IMG/VR virus record: IMGVR_UViG_3300044800_000286
DNA length: 64,000 nt
Source: a virus
Direction: 5' to 3' (one strand)
In this document: one piece after another, positions 1,314-57,456 of the stretch
How positions within the stretch are numbered: position 1 is the stretch's first letter
Layout of the letters: every line of letters begins with the position of its first letter
The notes under the pieces: generated by a model
Database searches by the model: none
What the model saw: only the letters and a program-made list of their open reading frames with translations
What the model was told of the DNA's origin: nothing
Made by a program: the position numbers and the translations under genes

Positions 1314-2618
1314 TTAGGTGCACGATTGCACCTGAGTCACTTCAGTGGGTTCCTGCTTCACGGAGCTTGTCTCATACGCACCGAAGCGCGTCCAAGATGG
1401 AAACTCTCCACAGGCTACGAAGGCACGTCCTGCCTCTAATTTATTCAGTGCTGCAACCCAGTCTGCGTTTGCTTCAAACTGGCATTCTGGGTTGATGCAC
1501 CGAAACAGTTCTTGGGTTTTCCTGTTCTCTTTCGCTGTGCGACCACACGACGGACAATGCTGGCTTCCATATGCGGGCGGGCAAGCAATGTAGACGCCAC
1601 CACGCCATTCCGATTTGTATTTCAGTTGGCGGTTGACCTCTCCAATTCCTTGCCGTTGCAACGAGCGATTGAGCCCAGATTTCTGACGAACATTCTTACC
1701 AGGTTCTTCCTTCGTACCTTTGGCTGATTTGGTCATCTTCTTAATTTCCAAATCATCCCCGTACACTATCCCGTGATTTTTGGTGATGGTGTTCGTGAAT
1801 TGATGACGATGGTTGTTCCTGATATTTGAAACCTGACAGTCTATTTTCCTGATTCGCAATTGCAACTTCTTCCAGTTGGAACTGAACTTGACTTTGTTCT
1901 TTAGTTTCTTCTGGAGAAATTTCTTACGCTCTTCCAAACGCGAGGTATTGGGAAGCTCGCTGACGCCGCCATCTGACATTGTTGCGAACTTTGCGACTCC
2001 CATGTCGATGCCAATATCAGAGGATGATGGGTGATTCGGGATTTCTACCTCGCGTTCTGTTTGGATAGATACAAAGAATTTGCCGCACGATTCTGACACC
2101 GTGACATTCTTTATCTCGCCAAGCACCTCTTGGCTATTGCGATAGCGCATCCAGTCAAGCTTAGGCATCTGAATGCGGTTGTTTGCCTGGTCTAGTGTGA
2201 CGCCTTGAGGGTATCGAAACGAATCGTGCTGTCCCTTCTTCTTGAAGGTTGGGGGATACGCAAGCGGTACGCCGCGCTTCCTGAGGATTTTCCGAAGCTT
2301 CTTATCCTTCGGGGCGATACGAAAACCCTTCTTGATATCCGCGAAGAATCGCGCATACGCAAAATCTAAATCCACCAGAGCTTGTTGAAGCGTCTGGGAA
2401 GGAGCTTTTGACAACCACGGAAGCTCTTTCTTCCACTCTGTGATGAGTTTATCCAACTGAAAGCGCGTATGCTTCTTGCCGATTAGTTGGTACATCTCCT
2501 CGTTGAGCGCAAGCGCTTTGTTGTAGATTACACGCTTGCAGCCGAGGAATCTCCGCATATCACGGATTTGTTCTCCGTTCGGTTGAAGCTCGAATTCGAA
2601 CGCTTGCTTTCTAATCAT
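1314..2618 (-). CDS. tnpB: RNA-guided endonuclease TnpB (IS605 OrfB)
   Basis: N-terminal AFEFELQPN, RuvC-I GIDMGVAKFA, RuvC-II region YGDDL, Zn ribbon CPSCG...CINPEC, RuvC-III NADWVAALN. Confidence 0.95.
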   Translation of the reverse strand: MIRKQAFEFELQPNGEQIRDMRRFLGCKRVIYNKALALNEEMYQLIGKKHTRFQLDKLITEWKKELPWLSKAPSQTLQQALVDLDFAYARFFADIKKGFRIAPKDKKLRKILRKRGVPLAYPPTFKKKGQHDSFRYPQGVTLDQANNRIQMPKLDWMRYRNSQEVLGEIKNVTVSESCGKFFVSIQTEREVEIPNHPSSSDIGIDMGVAKFATMSDGGVSELPNTSRLEERKKFLQKKLKNKVKFSSNWKKLQLRIRKIDCQVSNIRNNHRHQFTNTITKNHGIVYGDDLEIKKMTKSAKGTKEEPGKNVRQKSGLNRSLQRQGIGEVNRQLKYKSEWRGGVYIACPPAYGSQHCPSCGRTAKENRKTQELFRCINPECQFEANADWVAALNKLEAGRAFVACGEFPSWTRFGAYETSSVKQEPTEVTQVQSCT

Positions 2619-2640
2619 GGTTGCAGTATACTCTTGATCT

Positions 2641-3054
2641 ATGAGCTTGTCAAGCGAAATCCGACACGGTAGACATTGCGTTTTCTTACTTCACGTTCAC
2701 TTGGTCTTCGTGACCAAGTACAGAAGAAAGGTATTTGACGCTGACGCCATTCAACGACTCAGGGTTATGTTCGAAAAGGTCTGTCTCGATTTCGAGGCCC
2801 AACTGGTCGAGGTGAACGGCGAAGCCGAACACGTCCACTTGCTTATCAACTATCCCCCGAAACACTCGGTGTCCACGTTGGTGAACAGCCTTAAAGGTGT
2901 TTCCAGTCGATTGCTCAGGCTGGAACGACCTGATATTGAGAAACGCTATTGGAAGAACGTTCTTTGGTCGCCCTCGTACTTTGCCGCCAGTTGTGGTGGG
3001 GCACCGCTTGAAGTTCTTAAACAATACGTTGAGCAACAAAAGACACCTCTTTAA
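2641..3054 (+). CDS. tnpA: IS200/IS605 Y1 (HUH) transposase TnpA
   Basis: HLVFVTKYRR, HUH motif EHVHLL, LKGVSS, LWSPSYF, catalytic Tyr in YVEQQ. Confidence 0.96.
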   Translation: MSLSSEIRHGRHCVFLLHVHLVFVTKYRRKVFDADAIQRLRVMFEKVCLDFEAQLVEVNGEAEHVHLLINYPPKHSVSTLVNSLKGVSSRLLRLERPDIEKRYWKNVLWSPSYFAASCGGAPLEVLKQYVEQQKTPL

Positions 3055-41948: not shown

Positions 41949-42974
41949 GTAAGTGGCTTCCCACACGGCCCTCGCCTTCTCGGGCGTGTAATGAGGACCG
42001 TACTCAATAGAACCATCATCCTGAATCCTGAACAAAAACTCCCCGTCCCCATCCGTAACAACCACCCAATATCTGGTCTCGACTTCCATCATTCATCACT
42101 CCGTGGAGGACAGTTGGCATCCATATGGATCATTCGTGGTAGGGGCATTGGCAGCGGGAGGAGTGGGCCTCGCGCGCCAGTTGGTGGGCTTCGATGTCGT
42201 CAATGGCTAGTCCTCCACCAAAAAATCTCGTTCCTGTCCTACCTTAGAACCAATGCGGCGGCCAACAGCAAAATGAAGATTAATCCCGTATTAGCTTGCT
42301 CCGGGTCGGTGCCGATTCCCGATCTCCACGGCACATGGCTCTTATTCCCGGCCCTTGCGGAACCGGACAGCTACGTCGGCCAACGGCGCAGCCGCATACT
42401 AATGAGCCTAGCCGATCACGCAATCTGTAATGTAATACTGCACGTGAAGGGGCGTCGCGTCTCTATTTCAGGCTTTCACCTGCGGAGTTTCCTCCGTGGA
42501 TCGTTGCTCTTCCGTCACGACCCGGAACTTTTTCAAGTATTCTATCGCCGATTGCAACTCATTAATCGACTCGTGACAAAGACCTAACATTTTCAGGATG
42601 ACGTTTTTTGAAATTTTTTGCATCTTTACGTCTTCCTATTTTATACATCCTTGCTCTTGGTATGGTACTTAATGCCACAGGAAATCGAAATGCCGGGGGC
42701 GGTGAGTCACAGGCTTCACGCTTTTGCGGTTCCCGCGGCTTTCCGTCCCGCTCCGGCTTCAAAGCGGAAAGCCTATCGGGGCCTGATCACACCGAGTTCA
42801 GCGCCGTGCCGGTAGGCACTGCACTAAGTCTTTTTCCTTGCCCGACTTCTCTTCTTTTTCTCGTATGTCCCGTTCTTCGTGGGACTCGAATTCAAACTGC
42901 TCCGTGTCCTGGCAATCCGCCGGGAGAGGAGCATGCCCAAAAAAGGGCGTCCTATTTTTCATACACACCTAAAC

Positions 42975-43017
42975 TGGTTGCGGAGGCTACTGAGCTACCT
43001 TTGCTTCATCCCCCGCA
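42975..43017 (-). ncRNA. Mini-tRNA 1 (acceptor stem + D-arm-like segment + ACCA)
   Basis: TGCGGGGGATGAAGCAAAGGTAGCTCAGTAGCCTCCGCAACCA. Confidence 0.55.
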
Positions 43018-43143
43018 CGGAAATCAAAGCCGACCCGAGTTTCGCCAGCCCTCTACGGATTGCTCCTCGGGCTCCTACGGCGCACTCGACGCTCGGGTCG
43101 GACTTACCTGCGGGAACAGCGAATGACTGTTCCTTTACAAAAC

Positions 43144-43185
43144 CGGTTGCGGAGGCTGCCGAGCTATCTTTGCTCCATCTCCGCA
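43144..43185 (-). ncRNA. Mini-tRNA 2
   Basis: TGCGGAGATGGAGCAAAGATAGCTCGGCAGCCTCCGCAACCG. Confidence 0.55.
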
Positions 43186-43192
43186 TAAAATG

Positions 43193-43300
43193 TCGTGGCG
43201 GCGGGCCTTGGTACCCGCTGGTGTGTTGCGCTCATCACCAGTAAAGGGCGGTTGAGCTTGCCCGGCCCTCCCACGCGTGTCCTTCCACGCCGCGCCACAA
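43193..43300 (-). ncRNA. tRNA-like RNA A
   Basis: TTGTGGC/GCCACGA stem, D-like arm GCGT-GGAAGGAC-ACGC, two internal hairpins, T-like arm GCGGG-TACCAAGG-CCCGC. Confidence 0.55.
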
Positions 43301-43511
43301 TAATCCCCGGCTCAGGTGCGCCCATCCTGATTTGCCCTGTTCGAACTCTCGGCGGGGACACCGCCAAACGGGGGAGCCGCTAAGCTCCGAGCCTAAGGTT
43401 TCAAGGCCAAGCCCATACGATGACCACAGGGCCGGGAAACTCTGTGGCGCGGTCGGCATATGGACCTCCGAGCACTCACGCTTCCAAAAGCGGCGCTGCG
43501 CTACGTCAAAC

Positions 43512-44290: not shown

Positions 44291-44309
44291 CGTTAGTGGC
44301 GAACTTTCC

Positions 44310-44450
44310 GGACGCACGGGCGGGAATTGCACCCGCTTGGTAGCCTCGGGTAGGCGACCACGGTTTGAGACACCGAAAAACTAGCACTAACTTCTTCATT
44401 AACCCGATACTTTTTAAGGTGCGCGTCGCTGTCCGCGCTGCCGTACGTCC
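44310..44450 (-). ncRNA. tRNA-like RNA B
   Basis: GGACGTACGG/CCGTGCGTCC stem, D-like arm GCGC-GGACAGCGAC-GCGC, ~85-nt insert, T-like arm GCGGG-TGCAATT-CCCGC; TTGACA at 44505-44510 upstream. Confidence 0.6.
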
Positions 44451-44490
44451 GAAACTCTGGGAACCCCGCGGCTCCCTACTATAGATACTG

Positions 44491-46809: not shown

Positions 46810-46915
46810 TGAACCATACCCCTGCGGCTATTCCGCTCAGGGTCGCTGACCGTCAATCGGTCACGTAAACCCCGAGCCACTTGGGCTGCGGTCGCATTGG
46901 GTTCAAGTTACGCAT
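46810..46915 (-). promoter_or_regulatory. Putative attenuator of the Pro/Met tRNA operon
   Basis: Leader ORF plus alternative pairings: CTCGGGGT (46876-46869) with ACCCTGAG (46843-46836) versus the hairpin at 46842-46820. Confidence 0.65.
46853..46915 (-). CDS. Leader peptide MRNLNPMRPQPKWLGVYVTD
   Basis: Leaderless ATG 6 nt after TATTAT; Pro codons CCA, CCG, CCC and an internal ATG. Confidence 0.75.
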   Translation of the reverse strand: MRNLNPMRPQPKWLGVYVTD

Positions 46916-46921
46916 GCACTG

Positions 46922-46950
46922 ATAATACTCGAAAGTCCGGTTTCTGTCAA
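46922..46950 (-). promoter_or_regulatory. Sigma70-type promoter TTGACA-N17-TATTAT (overlaps the AGTATTA motif)
   Basis: -35 at 46950-46945; -10 at 46927-46922. Confidence 0.8.
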
Positions 46951-46966: not shown

Positions 46967-48481
46967 TTATGCGCCTAACTTCCCCGCATCGTACGCGACC
47001 CAAAATTCCGACGGCGTTTTGGCGGGGTATACGCGCCCGAACTTGCCCGCCGCAAAACCTTCGAAACGTCGCCCGCAAACGCACATCAATTCGGCACGAT
47101 GCACATTGCCCAGAAAACCTTGCGAGTAATCCGGGGGCTGTGCATGCCGATAAAGCACAGTATTTTTCTCACGTTTCTGCCCCCTTGACGGCCCGATCTT
47201 CATGCCACTTCTTGATGCCGAGGACGGCGTTGTTCAGATGCGCCTCGCGTTCCTCGGGCTCGAATATCCCGTCGCCGACAGTCTCGGCCGAATAGACCGT
47301 TTCGCCGTTTACCCACGGGCACGAGGCGCGAAAATACCCGTGGCGCAGCCGCAAGTAGCCGACCAGCTCGCCGCCGATGAAAGCGTCGTACTGCTCGGGG
47401 CAGGCTCCGCAAGTCATCACCAGCCGAACCCCGTTTATTTCAAAGTCGCCCATTTTATTTCTCTTTCAAGAGAGTCGGGCGGCGTGGGTTTGAACGTGAC
47501 GAGCGGCGGTGGGTCGTAGTTGTAATCTTCCGCGGTGCTCCACGCCAAGGTCGCAAGCATACCCAGTATCGCCTCGGCCGGTATATCGCCGGTATATTCC
47601 TTGCGGTACTTCTCGTATTCGTCCCATTGCCTCATTTCTTTGCCTTCTTCCGCCTGCGGGGCCGCGTCAGGGCGAGCGTCCGCTGGAATTCCTCGTCGTC
47701 GATGACATCGGCTCTTCCATCACCATTCCGCATGCGCCAATAGTATTCCCCGGTTCCTTCGGTCTCGTCCTGGGCGACCCAGCGGACGTACTCGCGGCGC
47801 TTGAACTTCGCCAGCGGATTCGCCAATGCTTTTCTAGGCGTGAGTTTCATACATTCCATGCGCCCAGCGCAAGGTCTCTTGCGCGTCCCCATAAGAAATT
47901 TCGTGCTCTTCCGCAAGATGATTGATCCAGCGGTGGATAGCCCTGTGCTTCAGCATCAACATGCATTCGCCGCAGCAGACGCAATCCTTGTACGGCTTGG
48001 GTTGCGGTTTCGGCTGCCGGGCTTTTTTGTAATGGTGCTCGGCAATCCAATAAATTCCCAAGACGGCTCCCCCCGGCACCACGGCCACGAGAAAAGCCCT
48101 TCTGGCTAGCTTATTCCAGTCCATTGTCTGCCGTTCGTTCCTTCCTCAGGACGAAATACAGAGTCGTCCCGTCGGTCGTGGCAGAGTCCAGTATACCATG
48201 CAATTCGGAAGCCGTGATGAGGCGGTACTGCTCCTCGGTGATGAGGATGATGCTAGCCATCAATCGTATCCCCGTTCTTCCCGACTCACCACGCGGCACG
48301 TCTTGTTTTCTACATCCACTTCGATGACGATGTCTTCGGACCATACGCCTAGCTTTTCGAGGATGGCACCTACTTCGGTAAAATCCCGCTTGTTTTCCCT
48401 GCACCATTCCTCCAAGGTCCCGCGGTTGTCGTTGTCCGGGTCTTTCCAGTATAGGCGGAGCTTCTTGAGTTTCCTGGCCAT
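46967..48481 (-). CDS. Cluster of small hypothetical genes (46967-47203, 47169-47453, 47435-47635, 47632-~47850, 47834-48124, 48260-48481)
   Basis: Overlapping start/stop coupling. Confidence 0.55.
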
Positions 48482-50310
48482 CAGTCATCCTCCTCACCGG
48501 CGACACGGCTGAGCCTCGGCTTTTCGTCTTCCGCCTGCGGGAAATTCACCGTGAAGCCCATCGTTTCCTTGCCGGACTTGATCTTCAGCGACCCTTTCTT
48601 GAAGTTGGTCTTGAGGCGGGCCAAGGTCTCCTTGCGGTCCAGCCCGAGGCAATAGGACGCCACGACAAGCTCGCGCAGGTGGGCCAAGCCCAGCCCCTCC
48701 GTGGCATCGACCAACTCGTCCAGTTCCTTCTCCGGCATGTGGTCCTTGAGCAGGTTACGCAGGTAGGCCCTCCGCGCCTCGGCCACCGGGTGGTTCAGCC
48801 CCACCACGAGGTCGAAGCGACCGGGGCGCTTCACGATGCGGTCCTCAAGCTGGTCCGGCTTGTTGGTGGTGTTGTGTTGAAGTAACCCCTCGCCTATAAA
48901 GGTTTTGGTGCTGGTTCCAAGAGCAACAACAGGACCAGGTCCGATTTCTTCAACAGACACTACCTTGTCGTACTCCGGGCAGATTTTAGTTCCATCCAAA
49001 ATTTTTAACAACAATTGGTTGGCTAGAAGCCGGATCGGACGAATGGAGCCGAGAAATTTAAGCTGTTTCCATTTTCCTCCTTTGAGGTCTATGCCTATCT
49101 GCGGACGTAGCGGGGTCTTGCCATCTTGGCACACCCCCCTCCCTCCGCTGGTTGTTTGCGGCTTGCGGTCGTAAGCTGTGAAGTTGAACCCCGTTTCGTT
49201 AAGAAATTTCTTTGTCTTATCGACTACTATCCCCTTCGCTTGAGCCCATTTCACACGAAACGTCCGACCCCCCGTGTTGTTGTCGCCGATATTGAGGCTG
49301 CCTTCCGCATCGTACTGGGCGGACAAATAGGCTCCCGCTTCGGAAGCGTCGGTCTCCCATGGCTTGCCGATTGAAACTACTCGGTTGGCCGCCTTAAGGT
49401 CTTCAACAAAACGCCATTCAGGAGAACAAGAGCCTAACTTAACTAAGAACGGATGGTGCTCGCTAACCACGATTTCCGTGCCGCTTTCCATTTTTACCCG
49501 AAACCGTTTTTTTGTAACCAGCGGGCAGGCTTCAACTGTAGCAACTCTCAGCTTTCTTCCCAGACCTTTGCCGAATTTGCGGGTCTCATCAAAGGCCGCT
49601 ATTCTATCTCCCGGTACTAGTTCATCTGCCCGTACCCAGGAAAGATCGGCCTTCAAAATACGTGTTTCAGGGGCAGGACAAGCGAGATGGACTATATGCT
49701 CCACCTGCGTCTCGCCGTCGAGGAGCGCCAGCAGGGCGCGGGCGGACGAGGACTCGTCGCTGCTCCCCATGAAAGTCTCGATGTCCTCGATGATGGTGAG
49801 GATCGGCCGCCGCGCCTCGATCTGGCGGATGCCGCCGAGGGCGTTCTCGGCCAGCCTGCAATTGGTGACCATGACCACGATGCCGTCGCGCTTCACAACG
49901 TCGTCGCACAGCAGGCGGATGATGCTGGTCTTTCCCGACCCCGCCGGGCCGTACATGAGGATGCCCCGCTTGTGCAGCAGCCCCGTCTGCTGGAAAAGGC
50001 TTTCGCGCTCCCAGAAGACCTTGATCTGGTCGAGGATGTAGTCGATGGGCATGCCCGGCAGCCGGAGCAGGGTGTCGGACGGGAACTTGACCTTGCTGAG
50101 GTACCAGCCCGCATTGTCGTTGTCGATCTCGTAGATGCCAGCGGGGACGGTATCCTGGGTCTTGCCCACGGGGCGGTACAGCCCCTTGTGCAGGCTCCAG
50201 TGGTAGTACTCGTTCTGGTCGTCGTCCGCGACTCCGCCGCTGTCGCGTTTCGGCTGGCCTTCTGTTGCTGTTTCCGGCTCGTCTTCGTTGTAATCGCGGT
50301 TTTTGCCCAT
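48481..50310 (-). CDS. AAA+ ATPase with an intein
   Basis: KRGILMYGPAGSGKT, IIEDIE, LLALLDG, sensor-I HLA|TTN, KRPGRFD. Confidence 0.92.
   Translation of the reverse strand: MGKNRDYNEDEPETATEGQPKRDSGGVADDDQNEYYHWSLHKGLYRPVGKTQDTVPAGIYEIDNDNAGWYLSKVKFPSDTLLRLPGMPIDYILDQIKVFWERESLFQQTGLLHKRGILMYGPAGSGKTSIIRLLCDDVVKRDGIVVMVTNCRLAENALGGIRQIEARRPILTIIEDIETFMGSSDESSSARALLALLDGETQVEHIVHLACPAPETRILKADLSWVRADELVPGDRIAAFDETRKFGKGLGRKLRVATVEACPLVTKKRFRVKMESGTEIVVSEHHPFLVKLGSCSPEWRFVEDLKAANRVVSIGKPWETDASEAGAYLSAQYDAEGSLNIGDNNTGGRTFRVKWAQAKGIVVDKTKKFLNETGFNFTAYDRKPQTTSGGRGVCQDGKTPLRPQIGIDLKGGKWKQLKFLGSIRPIRLLANQLLLKILDGTKICPEYDKVVSVEEIGPGPVVALGTSTKTFIGEGLLQHNTTNKPDQLEDRIVKRPGRFDLVVGLNHPVAEARRAYLRNLLKDHMPEKELDELVDATEGLGLAHLRELVVASYCLGLDRKETLARLKTNFKKGSLKIKSGKETMGFTVNFPQAEDEKPRLSRVAGEEDD
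48871..49680 (-). mobile_element. Intein (270 aa) in the AAA+ sensor-I motif
   Basis: CPAPETRIL...SEHHPFL...YDAEG...GLLQHN followed by Thr. Confidence 0.92.
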
Positions 50311-50321
50311 GAAGCCTAATA

Positions 50322-50690
50322 CTAGGCCCCAGGCAACAACTCCGTAAGATTTCGCAGCGAGAATGGCTTTTCCAACAGGGGCACGTCCTTGACCGAATCG
50401 TCCAAGGCTTCAAGGGCCGCCCTCGGGTCGCCGGACATCAGCGCCATGCGCTGGGCGGGAACCAGCTTGCGAATCTCGCGCGGCAAGTCCGCCCCGTGGC
50501 GAATCTCCTTGCTGCCGATGAAATTGAAATCGGTCAGGACGAAATCGAACGGCCCCCGCTCCTTGTAAAGCTCGAATGCCCCGCGGCCCCCCGCTTGCTG
50601 GCTGACCTTGTAGCCCTTGCGCTCGAAGAACGCAGCGAAGCCCTCCCGCACGTCGGGGTCGTCGTCCACAAGCAGGACACGCTTATCCAT
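50322..50690 (-). CDS. Single-domain response regulator (CheY-like receiver)
   Basis: VLLVDDD, FDFVLTD, LMSG, LEKPF. Confidence 0.92.
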   Translation of the reverse strand: MDKRVLLVDDDPDVREGFAAFFERKGYKVSQQAGGRGAFELYKERGPFDFVLTDFNFIGSKEIRHGADLPREIRKLVPAQRMALMSGDPRAALEALDDSVKDVPLLEKPFSLRNLTELLPGA

Positions 50691-51046
50691 TTGAGGTCTC
50701 CGGGCATTTTTGATCCGGTTTGAGGTGTTCTCCGTATGGGCGGTGGCAATCAGCGCAATGCTCGTCGCACTCGCTTGTCATCTCCCAATGCATTCCGTTG
50801 CCGCGTTGCCTCTTTTTGGCGGCCCATCGGAGCGCCTGTTCGGCGGCGACCAAGGACGCGCTTTCCATGATGAGGTACCCCATTTCCCGGTACGTGAATT
50901 TGCCGTGGTTGGCTTTGATGATGGGGCGCGGGACGGCTTCGACTTTCCCTTGGAAGTCCTGCGCTCTCTGGGCGTGCTGTTTCTATCGATCATTTTCCCC
51001 CTTCCTCCGCCGCACGGCAGTTCCGTGCGACTCTCAAGGAGGAGTC

Positions 51047-51319
51047 ATGAATACTGCGATACCAATGTCGAGAGGCAAGCAGTTCGACGAGGCGGTCGTG
51101 AAGGTGCTGCAAAACGGCCCGCTCACGACCCGCTACCAATATCGCTTGGCTGCCCTGCTCTTTCCACGGCTGGAGTCAGGCAGCATGTGCAGCCACGGCA
51201 AGGAAGGCTTGGAGTGGCATCACGAGCTTCGCACGGCCCAGAAGCGGCTCCGCATCGCCGGGGTGATCGAGCGCCTGCACGTAGCGAAGCGCAACGACCT
51301 GTGGAGGCTGGCGAGCTAG
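51047..51319 (+). CDS. Winged-helix protein (Mrr N-terminal-like)
   Basis: WHHELRTAQKRLRIAGVIE...DLWRL; AAGGAGG RBS. Confidence 0.55.
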   Translation: MNTAIPMSRGKQFDEAVVKVLQNGPLTTRYQYRLAALLFPRLESGSMCSHGKEGLEWHHELRTAQKRLRIAGVIERLHVAKRNDLWRLAS

Positions 51320-51343
51320 GGCTTGCGGTCTTTCAGGATTTTA

Positions 51344-52699
51344 TTAAGGAGCTTCGTGCTTGTGTTTAGGGATTTTGCCGTGCTCTTCTTTAGTCATCCA
51401 CGTGACTATTCCGTATGACTCTTTGTATGCCTTCAGGAACTCTTCCAGCGTCGCGTCCTGCGGGGCCGTCAGCAGGTCTCGGGCTGCTTTATTCCGGGGA
51501 TAGACATGATGGTTGGTGTAGCCTTTTTGTTTCTTGTTCGTGTAGACAGACGGAAGGTAGTAGACGGACGCCCCAATTGTATCTAAGACCTGCATTTTCT
51601 GGTTACTGTTGTAGGACCGGAAGCGTGGACGCAACCAATTCACCATGTCTATGACCACTTGTGCACGTTCTTGCAGCCGTTGTTCTTGTTTCGGAGTAAA
51701 CATGATATACACCGCCGCCGCATCACCAGGTCGTATGCGGGAGCCCAAGCCAAGCCCGTGGAATTGTTGACATTCTCCAATTTCGCACCCGCATTTAAAC
51801 TCAAAAGCCGATGCTTCGGGGCCGTGGGCAAAACAGACCCAGCGGTCTTTTGCCCTCCCCCACACGTCCCTGCACCCGCACAGCTTGCCATCCACTTCCG
51901 CTTCGCAGGTCGGCACGCGGGGCACCAACTCGCCGTTGTCGTTAAGCGTCACGCGGCTCATCGGTCTTCCTCCGTGTCGATCAAATCCTCGATGCGATTG
52001 GCGAGCCGCCGCAGCTTCAGGTATGCTTTTCCGCCGCAAAAATCCATTTGCTCTTGCAGCGCAATCACCAGCGTCGGCAGCAATACTTGGGGAAGCTCCG
52101 TCCGGTCCTTCCACATTTCAGCCAGCAAGCGCTGCGCCCGGTCGTAGGCGATTTCGCGTTCTTTGGTTGTCATTGCAACTCCTTTGCCAACCGGCGCACA
52201 TAGGCGCACGGGTCGCAATCGCAGTTTTCGCCGTCCCGCTGGGCTAGCAGCCGCGGTATTTCTGCTTCCGGCGTCAATGCTTCGTATTCGTTTGTGATCA
52301 TGATTTCCTTTTCCCGAACCAGCGGAACAGCCCGCTTCCGGACAACGGCGTCGGCACGGAATTGGTAATCGCTTTGGCCGTGGAGAAGAGGGAGGCGATC
52401 TCGACGCCCTCTCGCTTCCTGTCGATCTCCGTGCCTTAGCGCGTGTACCCCGCGATCTCGTGCGACAGGGACTTCCAATCAAAACGTGCATGTGGGGCGA
52501 TGGACACTGTAGTTTACACCTTTCCTGTGAGAGCGCGTATCTTTTTTTTGTCTTCCGACAACTGCGCTTGGAGGGAGAGCACCAGCCGCGCTTCCTCGTT
52601 CGTCATCGGGTACTTGGACTGGACCGTGCCGATCTGTTCCTCGTACTGAGCGACACGGGTTTCGAGCATTTCGATCTGTTGGCCTAGGGTGGGGTCCAC
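51344..52699 (-). CDS. Cluster of hypothetical genes (51344-51961, 51958-~52173, 52170-~52302, 52514-52699)
   Basis: Coupled ORFs with RBSs. Confidence 0.5.
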
Positions 52700-52791
52700 G
52701 GCAATTCCTCCTGCCCTAAGTATACAGGGGGCCGGGAGATTTGACTAGGTACCGGGGAACTAGTACGAAAGGTGGTGCCGGGAGGGGGAGT

Positions 52792-53295
52792 TCAGCCTAT
52801 GGCGGCTGCCAAAGTTTCAGTACGGACGCTTGGGCCTTTTCTTCCCCATGTTTCGGTTTGCGAGTGGCAATTGGGGCACAAAAATCTCAAATTGTTTTTT
52901 CGGTTGTCCCACCATTGTCCGCTTTCATGGTCTATTTCCAGAATTAGCGGTTCTCCTCGCCAAATGGGGAGACAATGGCATTTACAACATTCGTACGGAA
53001 CACCCGATTCAATCAACGCCCGACGTAAAACTGCGGCGTGTTCTTTCCGTTGTTCTGGCGAGCGAAGAACTAAAATCTCCTCCCATTGACGACGATTTTT
53101 GGGACGTACTCCCCTGTTCCTCCGTCGGCCCAAAAAGTGGGACGTGTCAAGCCCATAAATTCTTATCCATCGAGAAATGTTTCCTTGTGTCCCCCCGCTT
53201 TGCCGCAGCCCCAATTTGCGGATTATTTCCGCAAGGGTTAAACTATCTGCTACAAGCGGAGACAAAACCTCTTTTGTGTACTTTACATGTCTCAT
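52792..53295 (-). CDS. HNH endonuclease
   Basis: LILEIDHESGQWWDNRKNNLRFLCPNCHSQT. Confidence 0.92.
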   Translation of the reverse strand: MRHVKYTKEVLSPLVADSLTLAEIIRKLGLRQSGGTQGNISRWIRIYGLDTSHFLGRRRNRGVRPKNRRQWEEILVLRSPEQRKEHAAVLRRALIESGVPYECCKCHCLPIWRGEPLILEIDHESGQWWDNRKNNLRFLCPNCHSQTETWGRKGPSVRTETLAAAIG

Positions 53296-53354
53296 GGTAG
53301 ACTCCCCTACACATGAGATTGATAGTCTGCCAATTACAACACTACCGATGAATT

Positions 53355-53431
53355 TGGTGGCCGACCGGGGATTCGAACCCCGAAAATCTTCCTTCTGAGG
53401 GAAGCGGATATGCCGGTTCTCCTAGTCGGCC
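53355..53431 (-). tRNA. tRNA-Leu(CAG), short variable loop
   Basis: GGCCGAC/GTCGGCC acceptor stem, CTTCC-CTCAGAA-GGAAG, CCA. Confidence 0.9.
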
Positions 53432-53436
53432 AAACT

Positions 53437-53527
53437 TGGTGCGGAAGGTGAGAGTCGAACTCACAAGGGGGCTTGCGCCCCAGTGGATTTTAAGTCCACG
53501 GCCTCCGGCCAATCGGGCTGCTCCCGC
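53437..53527 (-). tRNA. tRNA-Leu(TAA)
   Basis: GTGGA-CTTAAAA-TCCAC, long variable arm, CCA. Confidence 0.9.
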
Positions 53528-53532
53528 AAAGT

Positions 53533-53622
53533 TGGTGGCGGATGAGAGACTCGAACTCTCACGGGCTGCTAAGTCCCGGCAGATTTTGAGTCTGCTGCGT
53601 CTGCCAGTTCCGCCAATCCGCC
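53533..53622 (-). tRNA. tRNA-Leu(CAA)
   Basis: GCAGA-CTCAAAA-TCTGC, long variable arm, CCA. Confidence 0.94.
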
Positions 53623-53628
53623 AAATTT

Positions 53629-53719
53629 TGGTGCGGGCGAGTGGATTCGAACCACCACGGAGTTTAACCTCCGCCAGCCCCTCAAGCTGGTGCGTCTCGC
53701 CAAGTTTCGCCACGCCCGC
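53629..53719 (-). tRNA. tRNA-Leu(GAG)
   Basis: CCAGC-TTGAGGG-GCTGG, long variable arm, CCA. Confidence 0.94.
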
Positions 53720-53731
53720 GAATCTATATCT

Positions 53732-53811
53732 TGGTGCGCAGAGCGGGACTCGAACCCGCAAGCCGTACGTTCTAAGCGTACGAGGTATGCCAAGATTCCC
53801 TTCACCTGCGC
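53732..53811 (-). tRNA. tRNA-Leu(TAG), short variable loop
   Basis: GTACG-CTTAGAA-CGTAC, GTTCGAG T-loop, CCA. Confidence 0.88.
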
Positions 53812-53820
53812 ACTTCAAAC

Positions 53821-53908
53821 TGGTGGAGCGAGCGGGCATCGAACCTGCCATGTCCGCAAGGGACGCCAGGTCTACAGCCCGGTGCACCGCCATTGGTGCG
53901 TTCGCTCC
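53821..53908 (-). tRNA. tRNA-Tyr(GTA)
   Basis: CCGGG-CTGTAGA-CCTGG, long variable arm, CCA. Confidence 0.9.
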
Positions 53909-53923
53909 AAAACTCTTCACCCC

Positions 53924-53960
53924 AAAAACAATAGAGCCGCCGAATCGCTTCAGCGGCTCT
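53924..53960 (-). terminator. Intrinsic terminator (attenuator 3:4) before the first tRNA
   Basis: AGAGCCGCTGAA-GCGA-TTCGGCGGCTCT followed by ATTGTTTTT. Confidence 0.8.
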
Positions 53961-53985
53961 GTCGGTACCGGGGCTGTAATTTCGT

Positions 53986-54063
53986 TTACCCGATGGACAT
54001 ACCGCTGCCGAAGCTACGAAGGTAGCTATACAGTCGCAACGATAATAGGGCCATCGGGGTCAT
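53986..54063 (-). CDS. Leader peptide MTPMALLSLRLYSYLRSFGSGMSIG
   Basis: GGAG RBS 6 nt before ATG; Leu codons CTA, TTA, TTG, CTG, CTT and Tyr codons TAT, TAC within codons 6-15. Confidence 0.82.
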   Translation of the reverse strand: MTPMALLSLRLYSYLRSFGSGMSIG

Positions 54064-54079
54064 AAAAGTCTCCGTCTAC

Positions 54080-54109
54080 ATAATACTGCGGTAGCTGGAA
54101 AACTGTCAA
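54080..54109 (-). promoter_or_regulatory. Sigma70-type promoter TTGACA-N18-TATTAT (overlaps the AGTATTA motif)
   Basis: -35 at 54109-54104; -10 at 54085-54080. Confidence 0.78.
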
Positions 54110-54218
54110 GAACTATTTTGGGGAACTACCCCTTTAAGTACACAAAAAATCTTGTAAATAGCTTGTTTTCAACACAATACAGCTAGCTAAAATCCCTCCT
54201 CGGCTGTATACTATGGGC

Positions 54219-54959
54219 ATGGAGAAAACGCCCATGAAGACAGCAAAAGTTCGCAACCCGTTCGCAGTTTCAGCCAAGGGGCTCGGGGAATTCAATACTC
54301 CTTGTTTCTGCGAGCGTTGTTTCATCCTCAAGAATCAGATGCGCGGCAAAGACAAGGAAGCGCCTTTCACATTTCCGCCACCGGGGATTTTGTCTCGCCT
54401 TGATTCCATGCAAAAGAAACTCATCAAGAACTCTGCGCTTCCGTCTTTCTTGAGCGCCTACGCTGGACAAGAATGTATCGAACTCCACCGCATGACTTTC
54501 ACTGACTCTGAGACTGGCATCGAATTGACTGGCGTCCCCGATTTGGCGTTCCGTGATGCGGACGGCAACATCACCATTTTGGATTTGAAGAGCAGCAAAC
54601 CTCCCGCCGAAGCGACGGAGTGGTCCGAGAGGATGCTCGCCATTTACGCCGCCCAATTGCACGCCTACAAGACGCTGCTTGAAGCCCGCGGCGAGGGGAA
54701 AGTGACCTCGCTCAGCATAGTGTATTTGTGGCCCGATACGATGATCAGCGCCGAGGGTGGCGTCAGCGTCGAGTTCAAGGCGACCGAACTCCCCGTGGCT
54801 CTCGACGGCACGCTCATCTCCCGCCTGTTTCAGAAGGCGAAGGCGTTGCTCGACTCCGAACTGCCCGCTCCGACCGCTGGTTGCGCCGACTGTGCCCGTG
54901 TGGCGAACTTTCTCGTGCTCTTGAACGCTGCGCCGAAGGCTGAGGGGGTGGGGGCATAA
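54219..54959 (+). CDS. PD-(D/E)XK nuclease (RecB/Cas4-like)
   Basis: LTGVPD...ILDLKS...QLHAY, with Cys clusters at both ends (CFCERC; CADC). Confidence 0.85.
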   Translation: MEKTPMKTAKVRNPFAVSAKGLGEFNTPCFCERCFILKNQMRGKDKEAPFTFPPPGILSRLDSMQKKLIKNSALPSFLSAYAGQECIELHRMTFTDSETGIELTGVPDLAFRDADGNITILDLKSSKPPAEATEWSERMLAIYAAQLHAYKTLLEARGEGKVTSLSIVYLWPDTMISAEGGVSVEFKATELPVALDGTLISRLFQKAKALLDSELPAPTAGCADCARVANFLVLLNAAPKAEGVGA

Positions 54960-56533
54960 TGTCAGCACGACTCACAATCGAAGAAGCCGAGCGTCGTTGT
55001 CCTGATATGGTCAAAGGTCAGGCATGGAAAGGCAATCACGCCGAATATAAATTTCTTTGCGAAGTGCACGGAGAATATGAACAAGAATTTAATCGCCACG
55101 CCCGTGGCGCGGGTTGCCAGAAATGCGGACGTGAAAGTATGGCCGAGGCGCAAAGCCTCACAATTCAGGAAATGGAGCACCGCTGTTCCGACATGATTAA
55201 AGGTCAGATATGCAAAGGCACTCACGCCAAGTACTGGTTTATCTGTGGGGATCATGGGCAGTACAAGCAAGAATTTAAGTCGCATGTGGCGGGAAGGGGC
55301 TGTAGAATCTGCGGACGCGAAAAATGTATCGCAAATAGACGACTAACACTCGAAAAAAAGTGGCACAAGGACGACAGATTTAAGCCGGGAAAACGAATAC
55401 CGGGAACAGACTTGGCATACATTGGTCCGTCCAGCCGCAAGACCAGCGGCGGGAATTTCATGGCGGGGGTTCGGTGTCTGCCACATGGAAATAAGTTCGA
55501 GGTGTCTTTTTCCCTCTTGAAAACCGGAAGTCCCACTACTTGCCGAAATAATGAAGCTTGCAATCTTTATGGATTCGAGCCGGGAAAACAGATACCGGAT
55601 ACCGACTTGATATATGTTGGCCCATCCGACCGCAAAAACAGCAGTGGGAAGCGGATGATCGTGGTTCGTTGCGTCCCGCACGGGAACACATTTGAGGTTA
55701 CTTTGCGTGGTGTGAAATCTGGATATGGGACGAGTTGCAGAAGCAATCCTGCTTGCGTCCTGCATGGATTTGAGCCGGGCAAGGTCATACCGGGGACGAG
55801 CCTTACATTTATGCGGAACATGGGAATCCAAAAAAGAAATAGGCATCAGTGGGGGCAGCGCAGCATCATTGTGCGGTGCGAGCACGGAAACGAATTTGAG
55901 ATTCCGCTAGTTCAAGTAAAGAGCGGAACCACCACTAGCTGCATGAAAAATCCTGCCTGTGTCGTCCGTGGATTTGAGCTAGGTAAGTTGATTCCAGATA
56001 CAAACTTCATTTACCAAGGGTATGAGACAGGACGCGATGGAAAACCGGGGCGCGCTTTGGTTGCCTGCCTTTGTGGTAAGGAACTTCGAATCCCCCTCGG
56101 CAACCTTCGAAATGGGGGATCGACAAGCTGTGGCTGCATTAAAACTTCAAAACTGGTAAGGGCTGTCAAAGAATTTTTAACCGCATCGAACATTTCTTTT
56201 GTTTGTGAAAAAAGGTTCGATGAATGCCGCGGACAGGAAGGTCACCACGGGCGCGTTCGCTTGCCTTTCGACTTTTACCTTACCCAGCTAGAAACTTTAA
56301 TCGAATGCCAAGGCATGCAGCATTACCGTCCCATACGGTGGAGCAAAAACACGTCGATAAAGCAGGCCGAGCAAAATTTTCAGGATTTGCTTCACCGTGA
56401 CCGCATCAAGAAGGCTTGGGCGGGACGCAACGGCTACACCCTGATCGTCGTCCCCTATACGATCAAGAACATCGCATCGTTCCTCGAAGACATGCTTCCA
56501 AAGCGCCAGAAGCGTGAAAGGGCTGGGGTGTAA
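54959..56533 (+). CDS. Zn-ribbon repeat protein with a C-terminal Vsr/DUF559-like endonuclease
   Basis: Repeated C..HG..F...G...C units; LPFDFYL...LIECQGMQHY...RDRIKK...NGYTLIVVPY. Confidence 0.8.
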   Translation: MSARLTIEEAERRCPDMVKGQAWKGNHAEYKFLCEVHGEYEQEFNRHARGAGCQKCGRESMAEAQSLTIQEMEHRCSDMIKGQICKGTHAKYWFICGDHGQYKQEFKSHVAGRGCRICGREKCIANRRLTLEKKWHKDDRFKPGKRIPGTDLAYIGPSSRKTSGGNFMAGVRCLPHGNKFEVSFSLLKTGSPTTCRNNEACNLYGFEPGKQIPDTDLIYVGPSDRKNSSGKRMIVVRCVPHGNTFEVTLRGVKSGYGTSCRSNPACVLHGFEPGKVIPGTSLTFMRNMGIQKRNRHQWGQRSIIVRCEHGNEFEIPLVQVKSGTTTSCMKNPACVVRGFELGKLIPDTNFIYQGYETGRDGKPGRALVACLCGKELRIPLGNLRNGGSTSCGCIKTSKLVRAVKEFLTASNISFVCEKRFDECRGQEGHHGRVRLPFDFYLTQLETLIECQGMQHYRPIRWSKNTSIKQAEQNFQDLLHRDRIKKAWAGRNGYTLIVVPYTIKNIASFLEDMLPKRQKRERAGV

Positions 56534-57456
56534 TGAGCCGCAGCACAATAAGCACCTTCGAGCTATTCGAGCGGTTCCCCGACGAGAAGTCCGCCCGGGC
56601 CTACATTGAACGCCGCCTGTGGAAGTGTGGCATCGTCTGCCCGAAGTGCGGCACGAAGGACAGCACGCCCCGCAAGGGCAGGAGGGGGTTCCACCTCTGC
56701 AATCCCTGCCGATTGGAATTCACGGTCAGGACGGGAACCATCTTCGGTCGCTCCCACGTGCCTCTGCATAAGTGGGTCTATGCGATGTACCTGCTCGTCA
56801 CAGCCCGCGAGGGCATTTCGTCTCTGCAACTGAGCAAAGAGATCGGCGTCAAGCAGCATACGGCATGGTTCATGCTCCAGAGGCTCAGGGAAGCGTGCGG
56901 GGCTAAGGTTGAGATGCTGCACGGCACCGTGGAGGCGGATGAGACGGTCATCGGAGGCTTGGAGGATAACAAGCACATGAGCGTCAGGCTCCGCAGGGGA
57001 GTCCCGCCAAAGACGGTCGTCATCGGGATGCGGGAACGGGGCGGCAGGACGGTTGCCAAGATTCTCCAGAGTCACGGCGGGACCGCAATTCGGAACGCCG
57101 TCACAGCCAGCGTGGGGTTGGGAACCCGCCTCATGGCGGACGAAAATCCCAGCTACACGAAACTGGGCAAGCAAGGCTACGAAGTCCAAACGGTCAAACA
57201 CGTCAAGGACGAGTATGTGCGGGGCGACGTGCACACGAACGGAATTGAATCTGTATGGGCCGTGATGAAGCGAGGATTGCACGGGGTCTACCATCACGCC
57301 AGCAAGAAGCATCTACAGCGATATATGGATGAGTTTGCGTTCAGGCTCAACGAAGGAAATGTTGGCAGGCATACTTTCGAGCGGCTGGACAGCTTGGTGG
57401 ACGCCGTGGCGGGGAAGCGGATTACTTACGAGGAGTTGACGGAAAATGCGGACTAG
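56533..57456 (+). CDS. IS1595-family DDE transposase
   Basis: Zn ribbon CPKCG..CNPC, GISSLQL, VEADET, MADE, HTNGIESVW, YMDEFAFRLN. Confidence 0.95.
   Translation: MSRSTISTFELFERFPDEKSARAYIERRLWKCGIVCPKCGTKDSTPRKGRRGFHLCNPCRLEFTVRTGTIFGRSHVPLHKWVYAMYLLVTAREGISSLQLSKEIGVKQHTAWFMLQRLREACGAKVEMLHGTVEADETVIGGLEDNKHMSVRLRRGVPPKTVVIGMRERGGRTVAKILQSHGGTAIRNAVTASVGLGTRLMADENPSYTKLGKQGYEVQTVKHVKDEYVRGDVHTNGIESVWAVMKRGLHGVYHHASKKHLQRYMDEFAFRLNEGNVGRHTFERLDSLVDAVAGKRITYEELTENAD

Follow-up and report, generated by a model that had tools for sequence, protein, structure and literature searches.

A candidate leader-peptide attenuator matched by codon to a Leu/Tyr tRNA operon of a giant phage

The pheM-pheST synthetase operon of Escherichia coli is controlled by ribosome-mediated attenuation. 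The phage locus described here shares the ground plan of trpL, hisL, leuL and pheL and of the multivalent thrL and ilvL leaders, in which a promoter is followed by a short ORF with a run of control codons and by RNA segments forming 1:2, 2:3 and 3:4 helices. The purpose of phage tRNA genes has been open for 50 years, with codon compensation set against rescue from the destruction of host tRNAs (PMC10264068); the tRNA-Tyr of phages T5 and SP15 offsets retron-Eco7 PtuAB, which depletes tRNA-Tyr (PMC11555353), a phage tRNA-Lys acts against PARIS (PMC11464382), and escape from a tRNA-cutting defence can proceed through the anticodon loop (PMC10264068).

We analyzed a 64,000-nt stretch of viral DNA (IMG/VR record IMGVR_UViG_3300044800_000286; the window). 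For one of its tRNA operons we favor, at a probability of about 0.74, the reading that a ribosome-coupled transcription attenuator gives the phage feedback on its tRNA supply. The attenuator layout with its codon-anticodon match had been put forward in the original prediction, and it is supported by comparative tests in 12 relatives and in other unit types.

The Leu/Tyr leader and the genes behind it

The window is part of the genome of a giant phage and encodes a family A DNA polymerase with an intein and a clamp-loader subunit. On its minus strand, a short leader ORF sits between a promoter and a cluster of tRNA genes, and a predicted intrinsic terminator precedes the first of these, tRNA-Tyr (Table 1). 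The elements on which the original prediction was built, namely a TTGACA-N18-TATTAT promoter, a GGAG motif upstream of the ATG, a 25-codon ORF with the codons as then quoted and, behind the terminator, tRNA-Tyr(GTA) and five tRNA-Leu genes (TAG, GAG, CAA, TAA, CAG), were all located. The 12-bp hairpin of the terminator is present as well, but its U-rich tail is imperfect, beginning A-U-U-G. Promoters matching 11 of 12 positions of the sigma70 consensus occur only three times in the 64 kb: before the Leu/Tyr leader, before the short ORF of the Pro tRNAs and before a TnpB-like gene. A codon-blind rule (an ORF of 18-50 codons, then a terminator) returned the Leu/Tyr unit alone from the 64-kb window, and the leader folds with a z-score of -5.0.

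Table 1. Positions of the leader elements, the tRNA genes and neighboring features in the window
Feature	Position	Strand	Remarks
Sigma70-type promoter	54080..54109	-	-35 at 54109-54104, -10 at 54085-54080; 18-nt spacer; 11/12 consensus
Shine-Dalgarno-like GGAG	54070..54073	-	6 nt upstream of ATG
Leader ORF, 25 codons (putative)	53986..54063	-	same start and frame in 12 relatives; length changes are multiples of 3
Control core, codons 6-15	54019..54048	-	CTA, TTA, TTG, CTG, TAT, TAC, CTT among 10 codons
Protector/pause hairpin 1:2 (untranslated RNA; predicted)	53989..54058	-	tip 54027-54012; consensus helix with two-sided changes
Antiterminator 2:3 (predicted)	53951..54007	-	54007-53989 with 53972-53951; about 17 bp; -24 kcal/mol
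Intrinsic terminator 3:4 with U-rich tail (predicted)	53922..53960	-	12-bp stem 53960-53933; core stem paired in 12/12
tRNA-Tyr(GTA)	53821..53908	-	encoded CCA
tRNA-Leu(TAG)	53732..53811	-	short variable loop; encoded CCA
tRNA-Leu(GAG)	53629..53719	-	encoded CCA
tRNA-Leu(CAA)	53533..53622	-	encoded CCA
tRNA-Leu(TAA)	53437..53527	-	encoded CCA; missing from Leu/Tyr cluster of relatives with captured leaders
tRNA-Leu(CAG)	53355..53431	-	short variable loop; encoded CCA
Response-regulator-like ORF	50322-50690	-	downstream of tRNA cluster
Intein-bearing AAA ATPase	48481-50310	-	downstream of tRNA cluster
Second unit, Pro/Met	46818..46950	-	promoter 46950-46922; leaderless ORF 46915-46853; hairpin 46843-46818, weak U tail

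The five Leu codons of the leader are all different and fall one to each Leu isoacceptor, as had been claimed, with CTT served by tRNA-Leu(GAG) through wobble rather than Watson-Crick pairing; both Tyr codons are also present, and a core of 10 codons serves all six downstream tRNAs. The probability that five Leu codons occupy five classes by chance, originally given as about 3% at equal synonymous usage and lower under codon bias, was recomputed as 0.031 and, at the usage of the phage, as 0.004. None of 8,798 windows of 24 codons taken from phage genes serves all six tRNAs. Among six-frame windows 47 of 71,641 do so, the real leader counted in, and the single hit among 98,177 stop-free windows of 10 codons is the real leader itself. 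Overall, the chance frequencies for the match range from 1e-5 to 7e-4.

An amino acid biosynthesis attenuator of the leuL type was rejected, since tRNA genes and an HNH-like ORF, and no genes for leucine synthesis, lie downstream. This HNH-motif ORF (52792-53295, minus strand), for which Pfam gave no match at 1e-3, follows tRNA-Leu(CAG), and an 18-nt piece directly past it (52790-52773, minus strand) matches the 3' end of the tRNA-Leu(CAG) gene that relatives have in long-arm form; the ORF is possibly a homing endonuclease that displaced an older tRNA-Leu(CAG) gene. The short variable loops of the present tRNA-Leu(CAG) and of tRNA-Leu(TAG) are atypical for bacterial Leu tRNAs, and a tRNA-Leu(TAA) in the Ser cluster of one relative (G004) is likewise short in this loop. 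No minus-strand terminator was predicted after the tRNAs (window positions 50000-53350), so that read-through may extend to the HNH ORF, the response-regulator-like ORF and the AAA ATPase.

Other features of the window were recorded in passing. In DNA runs, read depth climbs and contigs branch at 54080, 54105, 54120 and 54145-54225, and the promoter block 54080-54225 seems to have further copies elsewhere in the same samples, one of them diverging just past the -10 box. RNA run X19, readable at the level of contigs only, gave a low, flat depth over all bins. The phage genome also carries an IS200/IS605-like TnpA/TnpB pair (1314-3054) and an IS1595-like transposase (56533-57456); a host call from the latter was dropped because its matches (60-66%) are spread over Dormibacterota, Acidobacteriota and Alphaproteobacteria. 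A structured, tRNA-like or non-coding run (42700-43500 and 44300-44480, minus strand) lies between tRNA-Met and the DNA polymerase gene and received no ARAGORN or Rfam calls.

Homologous leaders and further tRNA units in related phages

Relatives were found through the neighboring AAA ATPase (76-94% identity) and through DNA patterns; they include complete genomes of 332, 456 and 463 kb, and the source samples are peat and pond metagenomes. No relative of the AAA ATPase was found in prokaryote genomes, blastn against cultured phages matched single tRNAs and nothing more, and exact-pattern scans with the terminator or promoter of the window gave no matches. One contig (L177) was discarded as a chance match because it has no tRNAs. 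Two of the complete relatives have no gene for an RNA polymerase beta subunit, which is consistent with transcription by the host enzyme.

A homologous leader with ORF, frame, core codons and terminator kept lies ahead of the Tyr/Leu cluster in 12 relatives. Conservation of the frame and of the codon-anticodon match in such homologs had been named as a check by the original prediction, and both are retained. A matching promoter is mostly present upstream, and the Shine-Dalgarno sequences are weak or variable. We aligned 12 leaders (that of the window and 11 from relatives) and found a mean column identity of 71%, with the start codon, CTA, CTT and the terminator core invariant. CTA, TTG, CTG, TAT and CTT occur in the control region of all 12, and those of the relatives serve the TAG, CAA, CAG, GTA and GAG tRNAs of their own clusters; most relatives repeat CTG. 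The distances ATG-CTA, CTA-CTT and CTT-end differ by multiples of three, whereas the spacer after the stop codon changes by single bases. Length changes in threes within the ORF are an indirect sign of translation.

Further short ORFs of this kind precede other tRNA clusters. The Pro/Met unit of the window (Table 1) contains CCA, CCG and CCC once each together with an internal ATG, and it precedes tRNA-Pro CGG/TGG/GGG and tRNA-Met; the U tails of Pro-type hairpins are weak, and the role of these hairpins as terminators is less certain. In the complete relatives, the units are Leu/Tyr; Pro/Met/Phe; Ser; Thr/Ile/Gln; Trp/His/Arg/Asn/Gln/Lys; and Val/Ala/Gly/Asp/Glu/Cys (the GNN box). A search for codon-matched short ORFs at the tRNA clusters of related phages, suggested together with the original prediction, thus returned matching leaders. 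In 16 leader-cluster pairs the leaders cover 0.97 of the anticodons of their own cluster and 0.29 of those of other types, and when each type is represented by a single unit, the true assignment of leaders to clusters ranks first among 720 permutations. Although the six unit types encode different peptides, every leader spells its own cluster.

Codons also tend to follow their genes between units, in cases that represent few independent events. The window has the only captured Leu/Tyr cluster with tRNA-Leu(TAA) and the only control core with TTA; in contig L092, a tRNA-Leu(TAA) is called in a Leu/Tyr cluster, and the contig has no leader. In G004, tRNA-Leu(TAA) ends the Ser cluster, and TTA is the sole Leu codon of the Ser leader. 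For G008, like G004 a complete genome, we predicted beforehand, and then found, a Leu/Tyr unit lacking both tRNA-Leu(TAA) and TTA and a Ser unit containing both; the codon-blind rule returned exactly one leader per cluster in this genome. Similarly, relatives with tRNA-Phe in the Pro cluster have Phe codons in the leader, whereas the Pro leaders of the window and of L105 have none, and no tRNA-Phe was called behind them. There are exceptions: L168 has TTA at codon 4 and no tRNA-Leu(TAA) in its cluster, and several leaders lack a codon for Gly-CCC or for some of the tRNAs at the distal end of long clusters.

The leader-controlled clusters of relatives also enclose protein genes, namely a TyrRS above the TIGR00234 cut-off (L176:2140-3315), a short HisRS-like protein (L171:2327-2941) and a Pth2-like hydrolase (L170:3576-3815). 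Leu, Ser and Tyr tRNAs form the long-arm class. The Leu/Tyr leader of G008 (L249:993) and the Ser leader of G004 (L170:2223) have the same 3' half, and Leu/Tyr leaders are Ser-rich, which suggests paralogy or recombination between the two units. In three relatives (L162:3203-3490, L172, L253), a separate cluster contains two or three tRNA-like genes whose anticodon is CTA (amber); no leader was found ahead of it.

RNA structures, the proposed switch and its rivals

In the untranslated RNA, the ORF is predicted to fold as one long hairpin, whose helix the alignment consensus retains, and the terminator forms. The AGCTAC/GTAGCT pairing originally proposed as the 1:2 helix exists, but it is just the tip of this hairpin and is compatible with formation of the conserved antiterminator. 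The 11-nt 2:3 pairing of the same proposal exists as a secondary register, modeled only with the ribosome on CTG or TAT, and we rejected it as the shared antiterminator because the relatives use another. The register common to all of them joins the last seven codons to the spacer and the 5' arm of the terminator. In the window it contains an A54006:U53952 pair where the relatives have G:C, at the cost of a U:G pair in the terminator. Antiterminator strands from the same phage pair at -26.4 kcal/mol, as against -22.7 kcal/mol after swapping (0/20,000 permutations); applied to the inner helix alone, the swap test is weak (p = 0.019), the antiterminator of the window is not clearly better than shuffled sequences (50/500), and column covariation is thin (one two-sided change; 31/500 shuffles). 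The antiterminator excludes both the terminator and the protector hairpin. The mutual exclusivity of helices claimed at the outset survives the comparative tests, with a strong swap test and weak formal covariation.

We modeled the stall zone with a ribosome footprint of +9 or +12. Across the 12 leaders, freeing the terminator arm costs on average 10-13 kcal/mol with the ribosome at any codon through CTT and about 1 kcal/mol from two codons past CTT, and the zone in which a stall opens transcription ends at the last Leu codon in every one of them. In this model, a ribosome stalled on the control codons does not occlude the antiterminator, and since the cost falls two codons past CTT, the control run stops where the geometry requires. 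Modeling of 20 leaders from five other types placed the drop at the end of their cognate runs as well. In full-transcript equilibrium, the terminator of the window wins at every ribosome position, and the switch is visible in only about half of the relatives. Read-through in the window would hence have to be kinetic, with the antiterminator forming first.

We infer termination, the direction of the switch and the negative feedback as follows. Host RNA polymerase would start at the sigma70 promoter with a ribosome trailing on the leader, transcription-translation coupling being assumed. When all control codons are read fast, the ribosome would run past codon 15 and cover the 5' strand of the 2:3 helix; the terminator would then fold and transcription stop near 53925. 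When any Leu or Tyr codon is slow, its charged tRNA being cut, uncharged or scarce, the ribosome would be held at about codons 6-15, the last seven codons would pair with the spacer and the 5' arm of the terminator, and the six tRNA genes would be transcribed. The new tRNAs would decode the slow codons and close the switch again. An RNA that is not translated would keep its ORF in the protector hairpin and would be expected to terminate. Sensitivity to a single codon is plausible, since attenuation of the his operon is abolished by a stop or a single slow codon placed in its control region (PMC11805395).

It is about an even bet that this extends to a genome-wide panel for tRNA surveillance: about six attenuators, with almost all phage anticodons represented in their leaders, where loss of an isoacceptor, for instance to an anticodon nuclease, would open only the block that replaces it, and where a codon moves with its gene. 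The TyrRS and HisRS-like genes in some units and the non-cognate codons in the stall zone count against a pure nuclease alarm; these codons, together with the early TTA of L168, also make a strict resolution of isoacceptors less certain.

The same observations bear on the best of the rivals, in which the switch operates but reports a coarser signal, namely starvation for Leu or Tyr or an overall slowing of translation, as ilvL and thrL do, and the one-per-isoacceptor pattern is secondary. The full TyrRS in the Tyr/Leu unit of L176 and the HisRS-like gene in the Trp/His unit of G004 would fit the sensing of tRNA charging as in pheST; Ser, Arg, Ala and Pro codons, non-cognate to this cluster, also lie inside the stall zone, and CTG recurs in most relatives. 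However, starvation sensors repeat the most sensitive codon, and in E. coli UUA and UUG are predicted not to respond when Leu is limiting (PMC1183508), so that one codon of each kind would better suit the sensing of tRNA supply. In the Ser units that include tRNA-Leu(TAA), moreover, the control run of the leader contains no Leu codon other than TTA, and extra tRNA would presumably be no cure for a missing amino acid. We regard a starvation signal as unlikely.

A leader without any ribosome-controlled switch, acting as a stand-alone small RNA or peptide while the tRNA genes are reached by leakiness or through a phage antitermination factor, for instance as a timing device, would agree with the dominance of the window's terminator at equilibrium, with its imperfect tail and with the stable hairpin of the untranslated leader. 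It is improbable given that six different peptides each spell their own cluster, that in every type the last cognate codon marks the end of the stall zone and that cognate strands co-vary. That a short ORF, a terminator and a tRNA cluster came to lie together by chance is hardly credible in view of the null frequencies (1e-5 to 7e-4), the conservation in 12 relatives and the G008 prediction that came true, even though short ORFs and hairpins are common and the case was picked after being seen.

Comparison with known systems

By the features that can be judged from sequence, the locus belongs with the ribosome-mediated transcription attenuators, its control codons being cognate to the tRNAs encoded behind them and not to a biosynthetic pathway. 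In the literature searched, where coverage of subscription papers is thin, no description of tRNA genes under leader-peptide attenuation was found, and the original statement that such control of phage tRNA genes is undescribed holds to that extent. If the attenuator reading is true, classical attenuation would extend to phages and to genes for tRNAs. Gating of each tRNA block by the decoding of its own codons would imply that these tRNAs are made on demand, and the question of what phage tRNAs are for would become one for a reporter assay, in which different stresses are compared for their ability to open the switch. The leaders, 140 nt long, might also be used to sense tRNA-cutting defences at the resolution of single codons.

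T-box riboswitches resemble the locus in that the status of a tRNA sets the choice between terminator and antiterminator, but they bind uncharged tRNA directly, without a ribosome, and are unable to sense the loss of a tRNA. A T-box with stem I specifier loop and antiterminator bulge was rejected: Rfam gave nothing over the leader, T-box included, at the gathering score or at E values up to 1. With the anti-defence tRNA arrays of phages, the locus shares tRNA genes behind a strong sigma70 promoter and a tRNA-Tyr, a known target of defence; in the portions of those reports available, the arrays are described with a strong promoter and with neither a leader peptide nor an attenuator. By analogy, tRNA-cutting defences may supply a motive for the switch, as distinct from proof.

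The likeness to pheM-pheST lies in the control of genes for the translation machinery, some units of relatives carrying a TyrRS or HisRS-like gene; here, however, the main cargo is tRNA, and the leader is multivalent and isoacceptor-complete. As in the attenuators of biosynthetic operons, the modeled stall zone ends at the last control codon, and CTA, invariant here, is likewise the codon through which the leu attenuator of Salmonella is controlled (PMC1183508). In contrast to those attenuators, the present one is phage-borne and would control tRNA genes instead of enzymes, it presents a single codon for each isoacceptor where they repeat one sensitive codon, its product is proposed to relieve the stall directly, and a whole set of such units is found per genome.
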